A DNA stretch of 64,000 bases from assembly GCA_018333865.1 (NCBI GenBank), contig JAGXSE010000065.1, positions 48,794-112,793 on the forward strand, given 5' to 3'. This document shows, piece after piece, positions 51,651 through 61,777 of the stretch. This DNA comes from Syntrophomonadaceae bacterium (GTDB lineage: Bacteria; Bacillota; PH28-bin88). The translations under genes were made by a program, and so were the position numbers. The notes beneath the pieces were generated by a model. The model searched no databases. It saw only the letters and a program-made list of their open reading frames with translations, and had not been told where the DNA came from. Every line of letters begins with the position of its first letter. The stretch's first letter is position 1.

Positions 51651-52694
51651 ATGCAGTTTGATAAACCAGTACTGGCCATAGACGTGGGCGGAGGGACCCA
51701 GGATATTTTTTTATTTCAACCCGGTCAATCCGTGGAAAACTCTGTGCAGATGGTCCTGCCTTCCCAGACCCAGGTAATTGCCCGTCAGATCAGGGAAATC
51801 ACCGACAGACGAGAAGACCTGTTCCTGACGGGGAGTTTAATGGGCGGGGGGGCTTCCAGTTCAGCCATCCGAAAACACCTTGCCGCCGGGTGCCGGGTTT
51901 ATGCTAACCCTGAGGCCGCCAAAACCCTGGACGATGACCTGCATAAGGTGCGGGCAACGGGAGTTATAATTACTGAAAGCCAACCCAGAAACACTGTCTC
52001 AGTTACAATGGGCGATATCAACCTGCCGGCCCTGGCAGCGGCTCTAAAGACTTTTGCCGTTGAACTGCCGGAACAGATTGTGGTTGCTGTGCAGGACCAT
52101 GGGGAAAGCCCGGGCTTCAGCAACAGGTTATTCCGCTTCCAGCACTGGCAGCGTTTTGTAGCTGAAGGTGGTGATATCAGACGGCTTTTATACAGTGAGG
52201 TTCCCTCATACCTGACCAGGATGCTGGCAGTTAAAGCTTTGCTACCCCAGGCTTATCTGGCCGATACGGGTACCGCTGCCATTTGGGGGGCATTGGAAGA
52301 CCCGCAGGTGGCCGTAAAACAGGCTGAAGGGGTAATCCTGCTCAATGTGGGAAATCAGCATACGGTGGGAGTGCTGCTGAAAAAATGGCAAGTCTATGGG
52401 CTGTTTGAACACCATACCGGCTTGCTGAATTCTGGAAAGTTGATTGACTATATCGAAAGGCTCCGCATGGGAGCATTAACCCATGCCGAAGTATACCAGG
52501 ATGGCGGTCATGGCTGTTATATCAGCCCAGACTATAATCCGGCGTCAGGGTTTAATCTGGTAGCCGTCACCGGGCCAAGACGAGCCATGACATGGGGAGC
52601 TGGGTATTATTTGGCTGTGCCCCACGGCAACATGATGCTGGCCGGCGCCTTCGGACTGGTAGCAGCATTGGCTGCCCGACAAATAGAGCAATAA
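51651..52694 (+). CDS. ASKHA-fold protein (possibly DUF1786-like)
   Basis: N-terminal LAIDVGGGTQDIF phosphate-1-like motif; no Fe-S Cys motifs; assignment from memory. Confidence 0.4.
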   Translation: MQFDKPVLAIDVGGGTQDIFLFQPGQSVENSVQMVLPSQTQVIARQIREITDRREDLFLTGSLMGGGASSSAIRKHLAAGCRVYANPEAAKTLDDDLHKVRATGVIITESQPRNTVSVTMGDINLPALAAALKTFAVELPEQIVVAVQDHGESPGFSNRLFRFQHWQRFVAEGGDIRRLLYSEVPSYLTRMLAVKALLPQAYLADTGTAAIWGALEDPQVAVKQAEGVILLNVGNQHTVGVLLKKWQVYGLFEHHTGLLNSGKLIDYIERLRMGALTHAEVYQDGGHGCYISPDYNPASGFNLVAVTGPRRAMTWGAGYYLAVPHGNMMLAGAFGLVAALAARQIEQ

Positions 52695-53415
52695 AGCATA
52701 CAAATCGCAATATTTTATACTTGTCTGGGAAAAACATAAATAATAAGCTTAAAATTAAGAAGGATACAAGGAGGTTTTCACTATGTCTGTATTGGAGGAT
52801 ATCAAACAAGCAGTGATTGACGGGAACGCTCCCAAGGTGAAAGCTATAACTGAAAGAGCTCTGGTCGAAGGAATCAGTATTAACGACATCATCAACGAAG
52901 GCTTAATCGGTGGGATGAGCTATATCGGCGTCAGGTTTAAAAACAACGAAGTCTATGTGCCCGAGGTCTTGATTGCCGCCAGGGCGATGCATGCGGGCAT
53001 GGGTGTGATGAAACCTTTGTTAACGGGTGAAAATTTTCAATCTAAAGGCACCTTTGTAATCGGCACCGTAAAAGGTGATCTCCACGACATCGGCAAGAAC
53101 CTGGTGATCATGATGATGGAAGGAGCTGGCTTTAAGGTTGTTGACCTGGGGATAGATGTGCCAACGGAAAAGTTCATTAAAGCCATTGAGGAGCATAAAC
53201 CCCAGATTGTCGGGCTTTCAGCCTTGTTGACTACAACCATGGTCCAGATGAAAAACACCATTCAAGAACTTAAGCCTTACCGCAATGAAATCAAAGTGAT
53301 GATCGGCGGAGCGCCGCTAACCCAAAAGTTTGCCGATGAAATCGGCGCCGATGCCTATGCTCCGGATGCGGCTACTGCTGTCGAACTGGCGACAGAACTT
53401 CTGGCTTCATAGCTG
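52695..53415 (+). repeat. direct repeat copy 1 (corrinoid-protein gene plus upstream element)
   Basis: About 95% nucleotide identity by eye to 56480-57193 across the coding region; upstream shares ACAAATCGCAATAT...ACTTGTCT. Confidence 0.8.
52783..53412 (+). CDS. cobalamin-binding corrinoid protein
   Basis: 209 aa; B12-binding motif GDLHDIGKNLV (DxHxxG) and Rossmann-like domain; AAGGAGG RBS. Confidence 0.85.
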   Translation: MSVLEDIKQAVIDGNAPKVKAITERALVEGISINDIINEGLIGGMSYIGVRFKNNEVYVPEVLIAARAMHAGMGVMKPLLTGENFQSKGTFVIGTVKGDLHDIGKNLVIMMMEGAGFKVVDLGIDVPTEKFIKAIEEHKPQIVGLSALLTTTMVQMKNTIQELKPYRNEIKVMIGGAPLTQKFADEIGADAYAPDAATAVELATELLAS

Positions 53416-53432
53416 AAAGGAGGCCGACCTCA

Positions 53433-54227
53433 GTGCTGGTTGTCGGCGAATTAATCAATTCTACCCGTAAAGCCATTGCCCAGGCCCTGGAGCAAAGAGA
53501 CCAGGCTTACCTGCAGGATTTGGCCCGGCGCCAGGTAGAGGCTGGCGCTTTGATCATCGATGTCAATGCGGCAATCGGTGGTAATGAAGCTGATCGCATG
53601 AAGTGGCTGGTAGAAATCGTGCAGGAAGCGGTGGGGGTGCCTCTTTGTATTGACAGTCCAAGTGCTGCTGCTATTGAGGCCGGTCTGGCCGTCTGCCGGG
53701 AAAAAGCCATGCTGAACTCCATTACGGCAGAAGACTACCGTTGGAACGAACTCTTGCCAGTTGTGCAAAAGTACAAGCCCCGCGTAATCGCCCTTTGTAT
53801 GGGTGACGGACCAATGCCTGAAACTACCCTTGACCGCCTGCGGGAAGCAGAAAAACTGGTGCCAGGCCTGGTGGCTGCGGGCATCCCGATTGAGGACATT
53901 TACCTTGATCCATTAATTAAACCCCTGGGGGTTAATACTAAACATGCTATGGAAGCCTTAGAAAGCACCCGTGCCTTACGCCTGGAATATCCCGGTGTAC
54001 ATATTATCTGTGGTTTATCCAATGTTTCTTTTGGCCTGCCAGAGCGTCGCCTGTTAAACAGAGCCTTTATGGTGATGGCAATTTCCTCTGGCATGGATGC
54101 CCTTATTATGGATCCCCTGGATCACCCTACCATGTCCTTCTTAGCGGCTGCCAGGGCTTTAGTTGGGCAGGACGAATACTGCCTGGAATACATTGCCGGT
54201 GTCAGGTCAGGAAGGGTTAAGGCTTAG
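53433..54227 (+). CDS. pterin-binding methyltransferase (methylcorrinoid:tetrahydrofolate type, MtrH/AcsE-like)
   Basis: 264 aa DHPS-like barrel; GELINS start, IDVNAA and HIICGLSNVSFGLP segments. Confidence 0.7.
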   Translation: MLVVGELINSTRKAIAQALEQRDQAYLQDLARRQVEAGALIIDVNAAIGGNEADRMKWLVEIVQEAVGVPLCIDSPSAAAIEAGLAVCREKAMLNSITAEDYRWNELLPVVQKYKPRVIALCMGDGPMPETTLDRLREAEKLVPGLVAAGIPIEDIYLDPLIKPLGVNTKHAMEALESTRALRLEYPGVHIICGLSNVSFGLPERRLLNRAFMVMAISSGMDALIMDPLDHPTMSFLAAARALVGQDEYCLEYIAGVRSGRVKA

Positions 54228-54259
54228 AGAAAGGTAATAAAAAATGGGGGTGGCTAAAA

Positions 54260-55405
54260 ATGGGAGCACTAACCCCGCGGGAACGGGTCCGGCGGGCACT
54301 AAGTTTCCAGGAGCCTGACCGGGTTCCCACCGATGTGGGAACCAGTGCAGCGACAGGGATCACCCTGGGGGCTTATGAGCAATTAAAGCAGTATCTAAAG
54401 ATGCCTGATGCTACTGGGAGCGTAAATCACTTGATGTTTCAGACGGTAACGGCAGATCACCGGGTGCTGGAAAGGCTGGGAGTGGATTTCCGTCCGGTAT
54501 ACTATCGCCCGCCTGCCGAAAACAAGGGTATTTGGGGGCCTGATGACACTTTTGTCACAGAATGGGGGTTTACTGTCAAACGGCCTGAAGGCGGCCTGTA
54601 TTATGACATTATTAAAAGCCCATTGCTAGAGGCAGAAATAGAAGACCTGGACAGGTATCCCTGGCCGGATCCCCATGACCCAGGCCGGATCGCCGGAGTG
54701 GCTAAAGAGGCCAAGGAACTCTACGAGCAGACAGATTATGCAATATTTGGCCCGGGCATGGAAGGCGGATTTTTCGAGCTTTCCTGGTATTTAAGAGGAA
54801 TAGAGCGCTTTTTTATGGACCTAATCGAAAACAAAGAGTTTGTCCACGCCCTGTTCCGGAAGCTTTTGGATTATCGCAAGGCTTTATTGGGACGTTATCT
54901 TGATGCAGCAGGAAAATACCTGGATGTAGTGTATTACGGGGACGACATCGCCATGCAGACCGGCCCTTTGATGTCTTTAGGGCTCTACCGGGAGCTGGTC
55001 AAGCCCTATCAAAAAGAGCTGTTCAGTTTTATTAAAGAAAAGACCGAGGCCAAGCTCTTCTACCACACCTGTGGCAGCGTGGTAAAGTACTTGGACGATC
55101 TGATCGAGATCGGGGTTGATATCATTAACCCCGTTCAGGTCAGCGCCAAGGATATGGATACTGCCAGGTTAAAGCAAAGCTATGGCCATCGGCTGGTATT
55201 CTGGGGCGGGATCGATACCCAGCATGTCTTGCCTTTTGGTACAGAAGAAGAAGTAGAGGAAGAGGTAAAAAGGCGGATTAAAGACCTGGCTCCGGGCGGC
55301 GGCTATGTCTTGGGGCCTGTGCATAACGTCCAGCCTGACGTGCCTCCCCAGAACCTGGTGCGAGTTTTCCAGGCCGCCAGCCAGTACGGTGTTTATCATA
55401 GATAG
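54260..55405 (+). CDS. URO-D/MtaA-family methyltransferase (substrate:corrinoid type), copy 1
   Basis: 381 aa with PDRVP near N-terminus and HTCGS, GGGYVLGPVHNV segments. Confidence 0.8.
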   Translation: MGALTPRERVRRALSFQEPDRVPTDVGTSAATGITLGAYEQLKQYLKMPDATGSVNHLMFQTVTADHRVLERLGVDFRPVYYRPPAENKGIWGPDDTFVTEWGFTVKRPEGGLYYDIIKSPLLEAEIEDLDRYPWPDPHDPGRIAGVAKEAKELYEQTDYAIFGPGMEGGFFELSWYLRGIERFFMDLIENKEFVHALFRKLLDYRKALLGRYLDAAGKYLDVVYYGDDIAMQTGPLMSLGLYRELVKPYQKELFSFIKEKTEAKLFYHTCGSVVKYLDDLIEIGVDIINPVQVSAKDMDTARLKQSYGHRLVFWGGIDTQHVLPFGTEEEVEEEVKRRIKDLAPGGGYVLGPVHNVQPDVPPQNLVRVFQAASQYGVYHR

Positions 55406-55659
55406 CTACCCGCTCTAATCCCCCCACTAGTTGGGACATTCCTTTAAAGCGGCGGGATAAGAGCGGTTACGCTACACAAAGTTGGGGACATTCCTGTCCC
55501 AAAAAAATGGCCTGAGCTTCAGCAGGTGTGTCCCCGTTCCTTTTATCTGGCTCTAAGCTTCAGTGGGGGTAGTAATCCCCCCTCTGAAGCCAAGACCCAG
55601 TTGAACCAATCAGATTATAGCCCCTTCGATAGCTTAAAATAACCCAAGTATAAAACAGG

Positions 55660-55695
55660 CTGGAAGTGCCTTCGCCTAGGCGAAGGCACTTCCAG
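55660..55695 (+). repeat. 36-nt perfect inverted repeat (hairpin)
   Basis: CTGGAAGTGCCTTCGCC-TA-GGCGAAGGCACTTCCAG; no T-run on the plus side, T-rich on the minus side. Confidence 0.7.
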
Positions 55696-55723
55696 CAATT
55701 CTCATGGCCTCTAGCAACGCAGA

Positions 55724-55751
55724 TTGCATTTTTCGCCATTTCCTTTATAAT
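55724..55751 (+). promoter_or_regulatory. sigma-A-type promoter for the small two-gene cassette
   Basis: TTGCAT at 55724-55729, 16-nt spacer, TATAAT at 55746-55751. Confidence 0.45.
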
Positions 55752-55809
55752 CTAAGATAGCAGTGGTATGATGTCAAGCAACTAAATAGTATACCAAGGG
55801 GGTGTTTTT

Positions 55810-56067
55810 ATGGTTCCGTCACCCAAAGTTAAGAAACATCTCAGTGAGATCAAAAGAGAGCAGTGGACAGAGGCGGAATTGAGAGAGCTGCTCAAAGCCA
55901 TTGCCCGGGATTTCCAATTGCAAATCGAGATATCCGGCGAATCTGCAGATGATGATTTTTGGGCACTCACCCCGGATGAGGATCAGCATTTCAATGACCT
56001 GCTGGTCAAATCAGCGAGAGACACCAAAAATAAGTGTTTTACCGAATACAGTAGGCCGCAGCTCTAA
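55810..56067 (+). CDS. small acidic protein (antitoxin-like)
   Basis: 85 aa; acidic C-terminal half; ATG with AAGGGGG RBS; 2 nt from the next ORF. Confidence 0.3.
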   Translation: MVPSPKVKKHLSEIKREQWTEAELRELLKAIARDFQLQIEISGESADDDFWALTPDEDQHFNDLLVKSARDTKNKCFTEYSRPQL

Positions 56068-56069
56068 TC

Positions 56070-56396
56070 ATGCGCAGAAAGATCAGATTTCGCAGAACTC
56101 ATACCTATAATGAGGAATTGTTAAACATCCGGGAATTCAACCGGGAATTGGCCGAACAGATTGAAGAAAAGCGAGAGTATTTTGAGCGTTGCCTGACCAA
56201 TCCCCCTTACCTTCCGTCACCAGGCCTCAACATGGAGACACTGGAGGGTAAAATTACCCGGCCCGATTGGCTGAGAGGGTACCCTAAACTATACAGCTTC
56301 AGGGTGAATAAATATGCCCGAGTAATTTTCTGGTGGGCTGAAGACGGAACATGCGAGTATTTATTTCCTTTTGCCAAGCATTACAGAAGAAGTTGA
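56070..56396 (+). CDS. small basic protein with RelE/YoeB-like C-terminal pattern (toxin-like)
   Basis: 108 aa; C-terminus YSFRVNKYARVIFWWAEDGTCEYLFPFAKHYRR fits the RelE/ParE/YoeB core pattern. Confidence 0.3.
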   Translation: MRRKIRFRRTHTYNEELLNIREFNRELAEQIEEKREYFERCLTNPPYLPSPGLNMETLEGKITRPDWLRGYPKLYSFRVNKYARVIFWWAEDGTCEYLFPFAKHYRRS

Positions 56397-56423
56397 AGCT
56401 TCCTGCGAGGGAGGCTTTTTTTT
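56397..56423 (+). terminator. rho-independent terminator
   Basis: Stem AGCTTCC/GGAGGCT (one G-U) followed by TTTTTTTT. Confidence 0.6.
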
Positions 56424-56479
56424 CAGTTCTTCAAAATGCTGGCTAACATTAAACACCAAAAAAGCAAAATAACAAACAA

Positions 56480-57193
56480 ATCGCAATATATTGAACTTGT
56501 CTTATGGAAGGCAAAGGCAGTAGTATTAGATTAAGGAAAGGACTACAAAGGAGGTATTTGATACCAGTGTTGGAAGATATCAAGCAAGCAGTGATTGACG
56601 GGAACGCTCCCAAGATGAAAGCTATTACTGAAAGAGCACTGGCCGAAGGAATCAGTATTAATGACATCATCAACGAAGGCTTAATCGGCGGGATGAGCTA
56701 TATCGGTGTCAAGTTTAAAAACAACGAAGTATATGTGCCCGAGGTCTTGATTGCCGCCAGGGCAATGCATGCAGGCATGGGTGTGATTAAGCCCTTGTTA
56801 ACTGGTGAAAATTTTCAATCTAAAGGCACCTTCGTAATCGGCACCGTAAAAGGTGATCTCCACGACATCGGCAAGAACCTGGTGATCATGATGATGGAAG
56901 GCGCCGGCTTTAAGGTAGTTGACCTGGGGATAGATGTACCAACGGAAAAGTTTATTCAAGCGATCGAGGAGCACAAACCCCAAATTGTCGGGCTTTCAGC
57001 CTTGTTGACCACAACCATGGTCCAGATGAAAAACACCATTCAAGAACTGAAGCCTTACCGCAATGAAATCAAGGTGATGATCGGCGGAGCGCCGGTTACC
57101 CAAAAGTTTGCCGATGAAATCGGAGCCGATGCCTATGCCCCCGATGCGGCCACAGCTGTAGAACTGGCGACAGATCTACTGGCTTCATAGCTA
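56480..57193 (+). repeat. direct repeat copy 2 (corrinoid-protein gene plus upstream element)
   Basis: Near-identical to 52695-53415; see copy 1. Confidence 0.8.
56567..57190 (+). CDS. cobalamin-binding corrinoid protein, copy 2
   Basis: GTG 56567 aligns with copy 1 N-terminus (VLEDIKQAVIDG); same GDLHDIGKNLV motif; AAGGAGG RBS. Confidence 0.85.
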   Translation: MLEDIKQAVIDGNAPKMKAITERALAEGISINDIINEGLIGGMSYIGVKFKNNEVYVPEVLIAARAMHAGMGVIKPLLTGENFQSKGTFVIGTVKGDLHDIGKNLVIMMMEGAGFKVVDLGIDVPTEKFIQAIEEHKPQIVGLSALLTTTMVQMKNTIQELKPYRNEIKVMIGGAPVTQKFADEIGADAYAPDAATAVELATDLLAS

Positions 57194-57337
57194 TTGTTGA
57201 CATTAATCTGACTGCGCCATCCATCGTTAAGCACCAAAATTTCTTGTGTTGCCAATGTCTGATTATAAAGGATTTCTTAAAAGAGAAATTTGTGCGCCAG
57301 GATCTAACTTGTGATCGTGATAGTGTTTAAGTTGAAA

Positions 57338-57360
57338 GAAGTATTTGCACAGAATACTTC
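57338..57360 (+). promoter_or_regulatory. 8-bp-stem hairpin between corrinoid gene 2 and the methyltransferase
   Basis: GAAGTATT-tgcacag-AATACTTC; not followed by a T-run. Confidence 0.3.
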
Positions 57361-57415
57361 TATGCAATAAAAAGTTTGAATATTATGAGATTTTAAGAAC
57401 GGAGGCTTGCTAGGC

Positions 57416-58513
57416 ATGACCGAAATGAAACCTAGGCAACGTGTCTTAACAGCATTAAACTTAGGAGTTCCAGATAGGGTTCCATTTATGGAAAGTGCTA
57501 TAGATGAGATTTTACAGGTTCAATTAATGGGCAGAGATAATTTTACCCCAGATGAGCTATGTGAAAAATTGGGATTGGATGCTTTTGGTTATGACTATCC
57601 TGCTACCGGTGGAGAGCTAGGAACAGGGGAAGTTGCAAGGGGTATAACCACCCATGATGTATATTACTTTCCTAAAAGAATAACTTTTGATTTCCTGCCT
57701 CCGTGGATCGCTGATAAAGGAGAGGGGGTGGCGGGGCGTAGTTTTATAAAAAAAGGATTGCTAACCGATAATGATTCCATTGCACTATTTGATAAATTTC
57801 TTCCCGATCCCCATCACCTAGCCCGATACGACATTGTTTCTGATTGGATATCAAAATACAAAAAAGACTATGCGGTTTTTGCCCGCATTCGGCTGGGTGC
57901 AGCTCCCACGATTAATAGCATGGGCTTTGAGGAGTTGTGTTACAAAATTTTCGACAACCCCAATTTAGTTAAGGAAGTACACAGGAGGTTTTCTGAATGG
58001 ACGGCTCAGGTTATTCAGCACCTAAATAAAATGGACTTTGATTTTATTTGGGCGGCTGACGATATAGCCGATAATAAAGGTCCTTGGTTTTCACCAGCGA
58101 TTTTTCAAGAATTCTTTTTACCGTATATGAAGATTGCAGCCGATGAAATTAAGAAACCATGGGTCTTTCACAGTGACGGTAATTTGTTCCCTATTATGGA
58201 TGATTTGTTATCCTTGGGGATGCAAGGCATCCACCCATTGCAGCCTGCTGCAATGGACATTGTAAAAATGAAGGAAGATTACGGCCACAGGGTATGCCTT
58301 GTTGGTAATATCGATCTTGATTATACATTGACCCGGGGAACACCTGAAGAAGTGGAAGAGGAGGTTAAACAGCGGATTGAAACGATTGGCCAGAAAGGAG
58401 GTTATATTGTTAGCAGTGCTAATAGTCTAGCTTCATATGTAAAACCGGAGAATGCCTTAGCTTTGGGGCAAGCAGTCAAAAAGTACGGAAAGTATCCCTT
58501 AATTATTGATTGA
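57416..58513 (+). CDS. URO-D/MtaA-family methyltransferase, copy 2 (divergent paralog)
   Basis: PDRVP N-terminal motif, HSDGN and GGYIVSSANS segments; distant from copy 1. Confidence 0.8.
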   Translation: MTEMKPRQRVLTALNLGVPDRVPFMESAIDEILQVQLMGRDNFTPDELCEKLGLDAFGYDYPATGGELGTGEVARGITTHDVYYFPKRITFDFLPPWIADKGEGVAGRSFIKKGLLTDNDSIALFDKFLPDPHHLARYDIVSDWISKYKKDYAVFARIRLGAAPTINSMGFEELCYKIFDNPNLVKEVHRRFSEWTAQVIQHLNKMDFDFIWAADDIADNKGPWFSPAIFQEFFLPYMKIAADEIKKPWVFHSDGNLFPIMDDLLSLGMQGIHPLQPAAMDIVKMKEDYGHRVCLVGNIDLDYTLTRGTPEEVEEEVKQRIETIGQKGGYIVSSANSLASYVKPENALALGQAVKKYGKYPLIID

Positions 58514-58614: not shown

Positions 58615-59712
58615 ATGAGTAAACCTGAAAAAAGAAAATATATGTTAGCTTTATTGTTAATGGTTTTGTTAACAGTAGTGTTTTTTAGTGCAGGCTGTGC
58701 ACCCAGAGATCAGAAAGCTGCGGAAGGACCACCAGCACCAGCTCAAAAAGAGAAACATACCTGGGAAATGCAGTCTTGGACTTGGCCTGGCTTGGAACCT
58801 AAGCATAGTATAGTCCATGATTTTGCCAAAAGAGTGTACGAGGCATCTGGTGGTCGCCTTGAAATCATCATGCATCCACGGGAAGCGGTTGTGCCGGGTT
58901 GGGAGGCTACTGAAGCAGTAGGAAGGGGCATATTAGACATGTCCTTTGAGTGGCCAGGAGTTATGGCAGGGAGATGGGGGGATGTAGGCTTTAATCTTTT
59001 TTCGCCTCCTCCCATGTCCCTCCGAGAAGGTTGGCAGGTAACTTCCTGGTTTTACGACTGGGGTGTGCTAGATATAATGCGGGAAGCATTCGCTAAACAC
59101 AATGTTTATGTTGCTGGTATAACCTTTTGGCAACAAGAGAGCTTACATTCCAAAAAGCCAATTCGAGGAATCGCAGATCTACGAGGAGTAAAAGTCAGAA
59201 CCCCTCCAGGCATAACTTCGGACTTTTTTAGAGCGTTGGGAGCCTCTCCAGTTGTTTTGCCTCCGCCTGAAATTTATTCATCATTGGATAGAGGGGTAAT
59301 TGACGCTGCTGAGTGGGTAACTCCAGTCGGAAACTTTGCCTCAGGTTTCCAAGAAGTGACTGAATACGTGCTTTGGCCATCACCACATCAAGAATTTGCT
59401 ACTGTATATGTAGCAGTAAACATGGATTCCTGGAATGCATTATCTCCTGAACTCAAAGCTATATTTAAGGGAGCTTTAGCGGAGTTTTCCTGGAGGCATG
59501 CATACGAACCTTATTTAGCGGATTATCAAACAATTAAGAAATATATTGCAGCAGGAAATGAACATATTCAGTGGTCTGATGCAGAATTAAAAAAGGCACG
59601 AATAATTGCCAGAGATTTATGGCGTTCTTATGGTAAACAAAGCCCACTTGCAGCAAAATTGGTAGAAAAGCTTGAGTCATATCTGAAAACGATCGGAGAA
59701 ATGCCTGAATAG
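58615..59712 (+). CDS. TRAP transporter substrate-binding lipoprotein
   Basis: Signal peptide with lipobox FSAGC; about 340-aa mature domain; directly upstream of DctQ/DctM-type permease genes. Confidence 0.65.
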   Translation: MSKPEKRKYMLALLLMVLLTVVFFSAGCAPRDQKAAEGPPAPAQKEKHTWEMQSWTWPGLEPKHSIVHDFAKRVYEASGGRLEIIMHPREAVVPGWEATEAVGRGILDMSFEWPGVMAGRWGDVGFNLFSPPPMSLREGWQVTSWFYDWGVLDIMREAFAKHNVYVAGITFWQQESLHSKKPIRGIADLRGVKVRTPPGITSDFFRALGASPVVLPPPEIYSSLDRGVIDAAEWVTPVGNFASGFQEVTEYVLWPSPHQEFATVYVAVNMDSWNALSPELKAIFKGALAEFSWRHAYEPYLADYQTIKKYIAAGNEHIQWSDAELKKARIIARDLWRSYGKQSPLAAKLVEKLESYLKTIGEMPE

Positions 59713-59747
59713 CAACTTGTTTTTAGCTCAAATCAAGTAGAACTATT

Positions 59748-59788
59748 GGAGGAGGGAAGGGATGCCTTGTCATTTTTATCCCTCCTCC
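59748..59788 (+). other. intercistronic stem-loop
   Basis: 10-bp perfect stem GGAGGAGGGA/TCCCTCCTCC with a 21-nt loop. Confidence 0.5.
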
Positions 59789-59885
59789 AAACTCTAAGTT
59801 TAGCGGTTGAAAGGAAGTCCTGCTAAAAATATTTTCAAAGCACCCGATGGGCATCTTTGAGTAAAACAGAGGAGGGATGAATAAC

Positions 59886-60383
59886 ATGGGGTATTTTTTT
59901 CGCCTCGTAGATATGACAAACGAATTGGTCGGCAAATTGATGAGCATCATCGTTGTTGCAACAGTGTTGATTATTACTTTTGGAGTGATCATGCGGTATA
60001 TTTTTAAGTCACCTATTCCGGTAGTTTTTGAGTTAACCATATATCCTCTTGCAGCAGTATATGCACTTTCGACTGGTTACGCACTTCTCCACAACGCCCA
60101 TGTAAATGTCGACGCAATAATCCACAGATTATCGCCTAGACACAGACTTATACTGGCCTTTGCGACCTTTCCGGTTTTTTTGGTTTTTTGTGCTGCGCTG
60201 ATTTGGAGCGGATTCCCGTGGGCATGGCATTCGTTTTTAATAAATGAAACAAGCGGGTCGTCGTGGAGCCTAAAATTATACCCATATAAGTTTGCACTGC
60301 CAATTGGAGCAGTATTGTTGCTCCTTCAAGGTACGGTTAACTTGATCCGTCAGATGGATCTAACTAAGAAAGCTTCAAAATAA
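59886..60383 (+). CDS. TRAP transporter small permease (DctQ-like)
   Basis: About 165 aa, four TM helices; ATG 59886 chosen for GGAGGG spacing. Confidence 0.65.
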   Translation: MGYFFRLVDMTNELVGKLMSIIVVATVLIITFGVIMRYIFKSPIPVVFELTIYPLAAVYALSTGYALLHNAHVNVDAIIHRLSPRHRLILAFATFPVFLVFCAALIWSGFPWAWHSFLINETSGSSWSLKLYPYKFALPIGAVLLLLQGTVNLIRQMDLTKKASK

Positions 60384-60457
60384 TGGCAGTGTCGAGTATG
60401 GTGTATGTTTGGGATCCGGGTAAGGTTGCAGTGTTAGAAAGGTAGGCATCGGATGAA

Positions 60458-61777
60458 ATGAATATTGAATTGATTACATTAGTTGTTATTATATCTTTCC
60501 TAGGTCTATTAATGGCGGGAGTGCCCATGGCCTTTACTATGGGTGGGAGTGCGATAGTTTTAACCCTTATTTTGTGGGGGCCAGACTTTATTCCCCTGAT
60601 TCTTATGCGCATTTTTGAACAGATGGCAAGTTATACTTTTGTGGCAGCACCAATGTTTATTTTTATGGCTTCGGTCTTAGAGCGAATTGGTGTCGCAGAG
60701 GAATTGTTTGAAGGGATATACTCCTGGATCGGCTCTATCCGCGGAGGTTTAGCGATAACTGTTGTGATCGCATGTACTATTCTAGCTGCTATGGTGGGCA
60801 TTATTGGGGCGGGTATTGTATTAATGGGGTTAATTGCCCTACCTCAGATGCTGAAACGTGGGTACGATAAAAACCTAGCAACGGGAACCATCATGGCCTC
60901 AGGTTGTCTAGGAATTCTAATTCCCCCCAGTATATTATTCGTCGTCTATTCTATGGTTGCTGGCGTATCTGTAGGGAAGCTGTTTGCAGGAGCTATAATC
61001 CCTGGGCTCATGCTTTCTTTCGCGTACGTATTATATATTACTATCAGATGTTATTTAAATCCAAAAATAGGTCCTGCTGCCAATGAGAAAAACTTGGAAC
61101 CTATTTCTATAAAAAAGAAGTTAATGCTTTTGAAAAATCTTATTGCCCCCATGCTTTTAATAGTAACTGTTATGGGCAGCATTTTTTTTGGGATTGCAAC
61201 CCCTACAGAAGCAGCCGGCGTAGGAAGTTTTTGCGCGCTTTTAATCGCGGTTGCCCGGGGTAAGCTTAGTTTTCTTATGCTGAAAGAAACTGCGATGCAA
61301 ACAGTCAAGGTATCAGCGATGATCATGTGGATAATTTTTGGTGCAACAGCCCTAATTTCTGTGTATACCCGCGCCGGTGGAGCTAGATTTATGGAAGAGG
61401 TTATCCATGCATTGCCTCTAGGACCATGGGAACTTTTTATTGCGGTACAAATGCTATTTTTTATTATGGGATTTTTTCTCGATTGGATTGGCATTCTTAT
61501 GTTAACAGGCCCACTTTTAATACCGATAATGGCTGAGATAGGATTTGATCCTCTATGGTTTGGTATCGTGTTTGCGCTTAATATGCAAATGGCTTTTTTA
61601 ACACCGCCATTTGGCCCAGCGATGTTTTATATGAAAGGTGTAGTGCCTGCCGAGATTAAAATTACAGATTTGTATCGGGCTGTCATTCCTTTTATTTGTC
61701 TGCAGTTGCTAGTTCTGATTATCGTCATTTTATATCCATCACTTGCCCTATGGCTGCCAGCGAAGTTATTCCCTTAA
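60458..61777 (+). CDS. TRAP transporter large permease (DctM family)
   Basis: 439 aa, about 12 TM helices, typical DctM pattern. Confidence 0.9.
   Translation: MNIELITLVVIISFLGLLMAGVPMAFTMGGSAIVLTLILWGPDFIPLILMRIFEQMASYTFVAAPMFIFMASVLERIGVAEELFEGIYSWIGSIRGGLAITVVIACTILAAMVGIIGAGIVLMGLIALPQMLKRGYDKNLATGTIMASGCLGILIPPSILFVVYSMVAGVSVGKLFAGAIIPGLMLSFAYVLYITIRCYLNPKIGPAANEKNLEPISIKKKLMLLKNLIAPMLLIVTVMGSIFFGIATPTEAAGVGSFCALLIAVARGKLSFLMLKETAMQTVKVSAMIMWIIFGATALISVYTRAGGARFMEEVIHALPLGPWELFIAVQMLFFIMGFFLDWIGILMLTGPLLIPIMAEIGFDPLWFGIVFALNMQMAFLTPPFGPAMFYMKGVVPAEIKITDLYRAVIPFICLQLLVLIIVILYPSLALWLPAKLFP

Follow-up and report, generated by a model that had tools for sequence, protein, structure and literature searches.

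A probable chromosomal type II toxin-antitoxin module with a RelE/ParE-fold toxin in a corrinoid methyltransferase cluster of a Syntrophomonadaceae bacterium

Canonical higBA operons place the toxin gene first and encode an antitoxin with a helix-turn-helix domain of the XRE type (HTH-XRE), and the antitoxins RelB and DinJ carry an N-terminal ribbon-helix-helix (RHH) domain. The catalytic set of RelE consists of K52, K54, R61, R81 and Y87. To our knowledge, ParE toxins lack catalytic residues of the YoeB type. In YoeB, Glu46, Arg59, Arg65, His83 and Tyr84 are catalytic; according to the YoeB-ribosome structure, they bind A-site mRNA and cleave it (PMC3814384). It is also documented that RelE/ParE toxins pair with many unrelated antitoxin families, novel ones included (PMC3141249). 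In this study, we analysed a two-gene cassette at positions 55724-56423 of a 64,000-nucleotide stretch of DNA (hereafter, the window) from a Syntrophomonadaceae bacterium (assembly GCA_018333865.1, contig JAGXSE010000065.1, positions 48,794 to 112,793 of the forward strand). Our results indicate that this cassette is probably a chromosomal type II toxin-antitoxin (TA) module whose toxin has the RelE/ParE fold. Closest to it in predicted working mode are YefM-YoeB, RelBE and DinJ-YafQ, with which it would share an antitoxin gene in first position, translational coupling and a RelE-fold mRNA interferase. A first-pass annotation made from the sequence alone had already read the cassette as TA-like, and sequence matches, the predicted fold and the mobility of the pair all favour that reading.

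The first gene, ORF1 (55810-56067, forward strand), encodes the putative antitoxin, an acidic protein of 85 aa (pI 5.12). The second, ORF2 (56070-56396, forward strand), encodes the putative toxin, a basic protein of 108 aa (pI 9.51) with a predicted RelE/ParE fold. The two frames are separated by a gap of 2 nt (junction TAA-TC-ATG), so that sizes, charges and spacing agree with those first described. Intact homologous pairs show intergenic spacings of -4 to +8 nt, several relatives overlapping by 4 nt (ATGA/GTGA), and a homologue of ORF1 lies directly 5' of the toxin gene at every locus where both are recognisable on one strand. Altogether, the pair has the operon structure expected of type II TA systems, namely small co-directional genes with tight spacing, one promoter and one terminator. 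When compared with the homologues at locus L014, substitutions at the first, second and third codon positions numbered 10, 8 and 34 in ORF1 and 11, 11 and 35 in ORF2, and a strong third-position bias was found in both frames across loci at 60-82% aa identity. This concentration of substitutions at third codon positions indicates that ORF1 and ORF2 are real genes under purifying selection.

The toxin and antitoxin candidates

The AlphaFold model of ORF2, obtained with a 16-sequence family alignment, is confident (pLDDT 82, pTM 0.76) and shows the order strand-helix-helix-strand-(short helix)-strand-strand-strand over residues 7-102. Thus, the predicted structure contains the N-terminal strand, the two helices and the antiparallel sheet of three or four strands that are characteristic of RelE/ParE toxins. 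A Foldseek search of the PDB with this model matched YoeB, archaeal RelE, RelK, YafQ and ParE2 over about 100-104 aligned columns. The Pfam family HigB-like_toxin is matched below threshold by 14 of the 16 ORF2 family members (best E 5.5e-05), RelE-like toxin families of PHROG match ORF2 weakly, and one JGI record labels an ORF2 homologue 'plasmid maintenance system killer protein'. These data substantiate the RelE/YoeB-like character assigned to the second protein by the first-pass annotation. The N-terminal extension of ~45 aa proposed at the same time has to be abandoned, as residues 1-45 make up, in the model, the first strand and helices 1-2 of the canonical fold. Relative to YoeB, ORF2 is longer by ~20 residues, which are accommodated in extended helices and in a Pro-rich loop leading from helix 2 to strand 2.

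On the other hand, ORF1 matched no credible family in Pfam, NCBIfam, PDB profiles, PHROG or PADLOC, and it was rightly described at first as untypical of known antitoxins. Its layout is the usual one for an antitoxin, with a basic N-terminal half (residues 1-40, pI 8.2) and an acidic C-terminal half (residues 41-85, pI 4.4). Conservation is highest in residues 1-40 (S4, K6, V7, K8, L11, I14, K15 and E23-A32), which follow the pattern SPKVKKHL..IK...ELRELLKAIA, and the C-terminal half retains the motifs FW..S.EE..RFNDLL and YTEY. The ORF1 model comprises three helices with disordered linkers, and a fold search with it returned nothing below E 5. Hence, structure prediction of both proteins, a check suggested in the first-pass annotation, revealed a resemblance to RelE/ParE folds for ORF2 and no structural neighbour for ORF1. 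According to the mechanism that we propose, the acidic, disordered half of ORF1 (~residues 48-85) would inhibit the basic toxin by folding onto it, and the conserved basic N-terminal half would dimerise, bind DNA and repress the promoter. The strict co-occurrence of the two proteins and their complementary charge are only suggestive of neutralisation.

Several candidate relationships of ORF1 were discarded. Its matches to Gp44-like, Macscav_rec, Myb and DUF6225 are weak and look like noise, and a PDB match to a 'nuclear elongation and deformation protein' (E 0.004) consists of two sub-significant fragments. An RHH fold at the N-terminus was also rejected, given that helix 1 is not long enough, the prediction contains no strand and no RHH match was obtained.

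Profile-profile alignment with hhalign places RP(E/D)WL..YSFRVNKxARVIF of ORF2 in register with KPEPLK..WSRRITEEHRLVY of YoeB. This register pairs the invariant R78 and R84 with R59 and R65 of YoeB, and D/E66 with E46. Right after the last strand, ORF2 carries a near-invariant K103-H104-Y105, the counterpart of Y82-H83-Y84 at the C-terminus of YoeB; H104 and Y105 are mapped by their position in the secondary structure and not by the alignment. We tentatively propose D66, R78, R84, H104 and Y105 as the candidate active site. In such a site, the acidic residue 66 would act as the general base, R78 and R84 would stabilise the transition state, and the C-terminal H104-Y105 would supply a general acid and an RNA-orienting residue.

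These residues suggest that ORF2 is most likely a ribosome-dependent mRNA endonuclease of the YoeB/RelE/YafQ type, a sub-claim that is less certain than the TA assignment itself. Alternatively, the cassette could be the same type II TA pair with a toxin that poisons DNA gyrase in the manner of ParE, which we consider improbable. Structure alone cannot separate the RNase and gyrase-poison branches. The residues favour the RNase, as the invariant R78 and R84 and the near-invariant H104-Y105 occupy the catalytic positions of YoeB. Moreover, the top structural matches by both methods are the RNases YafQ, YoeB, RelE and RelK, and the sole Pfam and PHROG signals for ORF2 are HigB- or RelE-like.

A number of observations weigh against the TA assignment or its mechanistic refinement. 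The best Pfam match of ORF2, HigB-like_toxin, reaches 16.3 bits and stays under the cut-off of 27; no NCBIfam match was found for ORF2, its PADLOC scan gave nothing above threshold, and no curated sequence model of the RelE/ParE superfamily matched it significantly. A PDB sequence-profile search with ORF2 gave no significant match either. The ORF1 model has low confidence (pLDDT 61), a value consistent with disorder, and ORF1 shows no recognisable DNA-binding domain. Furthermore, the alignment of the ORF2 family to YoeB is weak (E 0.12 with one sequence; E 0.024 and a probability of 2% with a four-sequence profile), although the register was identical each time. It is because of this weakness that the catalytic mapping is tentative. 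Finally, position 66 is Gly in 2 of the 16 ORF2 family members.

A mobile unit with its own signals

The promoter lies at 55724-55751 (forward strand) and consists of a -35 box TTGCAT (55724-55729), a 16-nt spacer and a -10 box TATAAT (55746-55751). A consensus promoter scan left it unlisted because its -35 box fits the consensus at only three of six bases. It aligns with the promoter TTGTAA-N17-TATAAT (family sequence TTGTAAGTTTCCACCAGTTTCGATATAAT) that precedes the pair in 9-10 independent loci, the TATAAT being invariant, and the sister strain at locus L023 has TTGTAA-N17-TATAAT as well. The promoter of the first-pass annotation is thus present in the sequence and homologous to that of the family. 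In the family promoter, the 17-nt spacer (GTTTCCACCAGTTTCGA) is well conserved and has GTTTC twice, 10 nt apart (e.g. L013 1237-1309 and L005 4716-4788). This conserved spacer could be an operator, or it could reflect plain shared ancestry. A search for operators across the loci revealed no common inverted repeat or conserved palindrome.

Between the -10 box and the ribosome-binding site (RBS), the window and its sister strains, and only they, have a 37-nt insertion in the 5' leader (55760-55796, forward strand). It carries a 6-bp inverted repeat, TGGTAT/ATACCA, which is probably not an operator, because the repeat is broken in the sister strain at L023. The RBS itself, AAGGGGGTG (55796-55804, forward strand), has a core that ends 7 nt 5' of the ORF1 ATG and is kept in every aligned locus. 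At the other end, an intrinsic terminator (56395-56423, forward strand) is formed by a 10-bp stem with a 4-nt loop (56395-56418) and eight T (56416-56423). The energy of this hairpin is -13.5 kcal/mol (z = -2.1), and at most homologous loci a comparable hairpin with a T-run is located after the stop codon of the toxin gene, in keeping with the strong terminator noted at first. No RNA family of Rfam was found in the window at the gathering threshold, and region 55350-56600 gave noise only.

We propose that the single promoter would drive a bicistronic mRNA ending at the terminator of the cassette. From the strong RBS of ORF1, the 2-nt gap before ORF2 and the 4-nt overlap seen in relatives, we infer that translation of the toxin would be coupled to that of the antitoxin and would remain below it.

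Nucleotide homology between loci covers only ~55792-56422, that is, from the RBS to the terminator, together with the conserved promoter. The pair occupies ~13 unrelated genomic sites, and such variety of contexts is expected of type II TA modules. It was found between sigma-70/DUF4367 genes, beside RepA, TraG, Replic_Relax and SNF2/DUF1156 genes, after glmS, after a VWA_CoxE gene, and adjoining either a Phd/ParE pair or an RHH-plus-RelE-like pair (L021). Since the unit from promoter to terminator recurs in unrelated contexts, the 'self-contained cassette' of the first reading is literally correct.

The family is small. Among 5.8 billion proteins, ORF2 homologues form 15 clusters and ORF1 homologues 11, and an exhaustive profile search with ORF2 against 1.84 billion representatives recovered no other family, its own being present there as 3 clusters. 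The pair was located at 5 loci in a set of 185,579 species genomes and at 11 loci in a metagenome collection. All named hosts are uncultured Syntrophomonadaceae, Peptococcaceae, Clostridiales or Bacillota, and no homologue of the pair was found in PLSDB plasmids, INPHARED phages or IMG/VR viral contigs. Some loci differ in gene content. At L002 (5515-5745), and also at L016 and L017, a third ORF of 76 aa overlaps the antitoxin start by 4 nt and replaces the family promoter, a three-gene layout that recalls paaR-paaA-parE; the ORF of L002 has no Pfam, PHROG or PADLOC match.

Decayed copies of the pair are also informative. The antitoxin frame is open next to a toxin that diverges past codon 87 (L009), to a toxin frameshifted near codon 50 (L010, where the antitoxin has lost its normal stop and reaches 91 aa) and to a toxin with at least two frameshifts (L018). 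At L021/L022, an inverted 24-codon fragment is what is left of the toxin, the antitoxin being open in L021, and at L019 both genes are degraded. The single possible counterexample is L004, with an intact toxin and an antitoxin gene whose native start codon and promoter were lost to an adjacent rearrangement. A skew of this kind is expected when one gene is toxic and its neighbour restrains it. It must be counted on the other side that these apparent pseudogenes come from metagenome assemblies, so that some of the frameshifts could be assembly errors. As a separate observation, the intact antitoxin homologue of L021 and the RHH-plus-RelE/ParE-like pair alongside it form a small TA island (1257-2597).

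The methyltransferase locus

An identical ORF1 protein is encoded on at least 18 contigs from different samples, and the strains with this sequence-identical antitoxin show three arrangements of the locus. Strains of the window type (L026, L027 and L029) have, in this order, DUF1786, a corrinoid protein, a pterin-binding methyltransferase, a URO-D methyltransferase, the pair, a corrinoid protein, URO-D and DctP. Sister strains (L023, L028, L030 and L031), whose flanks are ~94% identical in nucleotide sequence, lack the first corrinoid-protein gene and have a single copy. They also carry a VapBC pair (RHH_3 plus PIN) directly upstream of the cassette, in a 1006-nt segment that stands in place of 332 non-coding nt of the window (55398-55729). 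In the third arrangement (L032), DctP directly follows the pair, and the downstream corrinoid-protein and URO-D genes are missing. Lying between the URO-D methyltransferase gene and the cassette, the 332-nt segment includes a GC-rich hairpin with a perfect stem of 17 bp (55659-55696), and nothing similar to the segment occurs in the rest of the window or in the loci retrieved. Homology between strains picks up again at ~55722-55730, which is the -35 box of the cassette.

The first-pass annotation had placed the cassette between duplicated methyltransferase modules. We found that only the corrinoid-protein (B12-binding) gene and ~100 nt upstream of it are duplicated, recently (52679-53414 and 56455-57190, 96% aa identity). 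Identity between the two URO-D-type methyltransferases of the window is 27%. As regards presence or absence in relatives, also raised at first, the sister strains keep the pair at this site, and no closely related strain with the locus and without the pair was found. The only loci encountered that are free of the pair hold methyltransferase genes more distantly related to the neighbouring one (72% and 65% identity), and these loci have different contexts. Because the site varies between strains and the distant methyltransferase loci lack the pair, our results indicate that the cassette is an acquired element at a variable, TA-accumulating spot and not a part of the methyltransferase operon.

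These data bear on a second alternative, raised in part by the first-pass annotation, in which the genes would be a non-toxic, domesticated pair of small regulators or accessory proteins serving the flanking corrinoid methyltransferase genes. Every close relative found does have the pair between URO-D-type methyltransferase and corrinoid-protein genes, and 6 of the 11 ORF1 family members show weak Myb/SANT-like matches (E 0.036). However, the link to the methyltransferase operon is contradicted by other genomes, where the same pair has no methyltransferase neighbours, and by the distant homologues of the neighbouring methyltransferase at loci without the pair. The pair also has its own conserved promoter and terminator, and decay of the toxin alone, with the antitoxin kept, is hard to explain for a harmless regulator. 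We therefore regard this alternative as very unlikely. That the frames are chance or decaying ones without function is more remote still: no curated family match reaches threshold and the family is tiny (the 3 representative clusters among 1.84 billion), but third-codon-position bias is strong in both ORFs at loci of 60-82% aa identity, the ORF2 fold model is confident, promoter, RBS and terminator are conserved, and identical proteins recur on at least 18 contigs from different samples.

Having retained the type II TA module as the preferred reading, we also considered a bolder version of it. In this version, ORF1 would found a new antitoxin family without a known DNA-binding fold and repress its operon through the unusually conserved -35/-10 spacer GTTTCC-ACCA-GTTTCG, and the cassette would mark a recombination hot spot at which TA modules and corrinoid-methyltransferase genes come and go. 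We hold this combination to be a speculative and rather doubtful one.

The surroundings of the cassette in the window form a corrinoid-dependent methyl-transfer cluster (51651-58513), with DUF1786, a pterin-binding methyltransferase, two URO-D-type methyltransferases and corrinoid proteins. It is followed by the TRAP transporter genes DctP/Q/M (58615-61777), after which the sister strains carry a B12-binding PocR histidine kinase and an AraC-type response regulator.

Comparison with known systems

As a selfish or defence element, the cassette would be of an ordinary kind, represented here by a rare and unannotated version. It does not change the understanding of type II systems and will not surprise specialists. 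It adds to the RelE/ParE superfamily a sequence-isolated lineage overlooked by curated models and entered in databases as 'hypothetical protein', and also an antitoxin without detectable relatives, a further case of RelE-fold toxins recruiting unrelated antitoxins. This may be useful for the annotation of TA and defence genes in uncultured subsurface Bacillota. In addition, the locus offers a small example of a TA-marked variable spot in a metabolic cluster, where VapBC is present or absent and a corrinoid-protein gene is duplicated or lost.

Compared with YefM-YoeB, the differences concern both partners. YoeB and ORF2 share ~13-19% identity and differ in length (84 and 108 aa), ORF2 having longer helices 1-2 and the Pro-rich loop, and the Pfam model YoeB_toxin matches 1 of 16 ORF2 family members (E 0.12). 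The antitoxin of that system is a Phd/YefM protein; ORF1 and 10 of its homologues gave no match to PF02604 up to E 10, and ORF1 is predicted to be all helical, unlike the secondary structure of Phd/YefM. In contrast to HigBA, the partner gene precedes the toxin gene here, ORF1 has no HTH_3/XRE match, and the ORF2 score lies under the Pfam cut-off for HigB-like_toxin (PF05015). Unlike the antitoxins of RelBE and DinJ-YafQ, ORF1 shows no RHH match, and its first helix is too short for that fold. PaaA2-ParE2, which comes with the PaaR2 regulator, differs in that ORF2 has RNase-type residues and that neither the window nor most loci contain a third gene; no sequence similarity to PaaA2 was found. 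Hence, no named TA family fits the cassette, because curated models stay below threshold, the partner is not of the Phd/YefM, RHH or HTH-XRE type, and the gene order of higBA is reversed. Altogether, the description that fits the cassette best is that of a new, sequence-isolated family among the type II TA systems of the RelE superfamily, with an orphan antitoxin.
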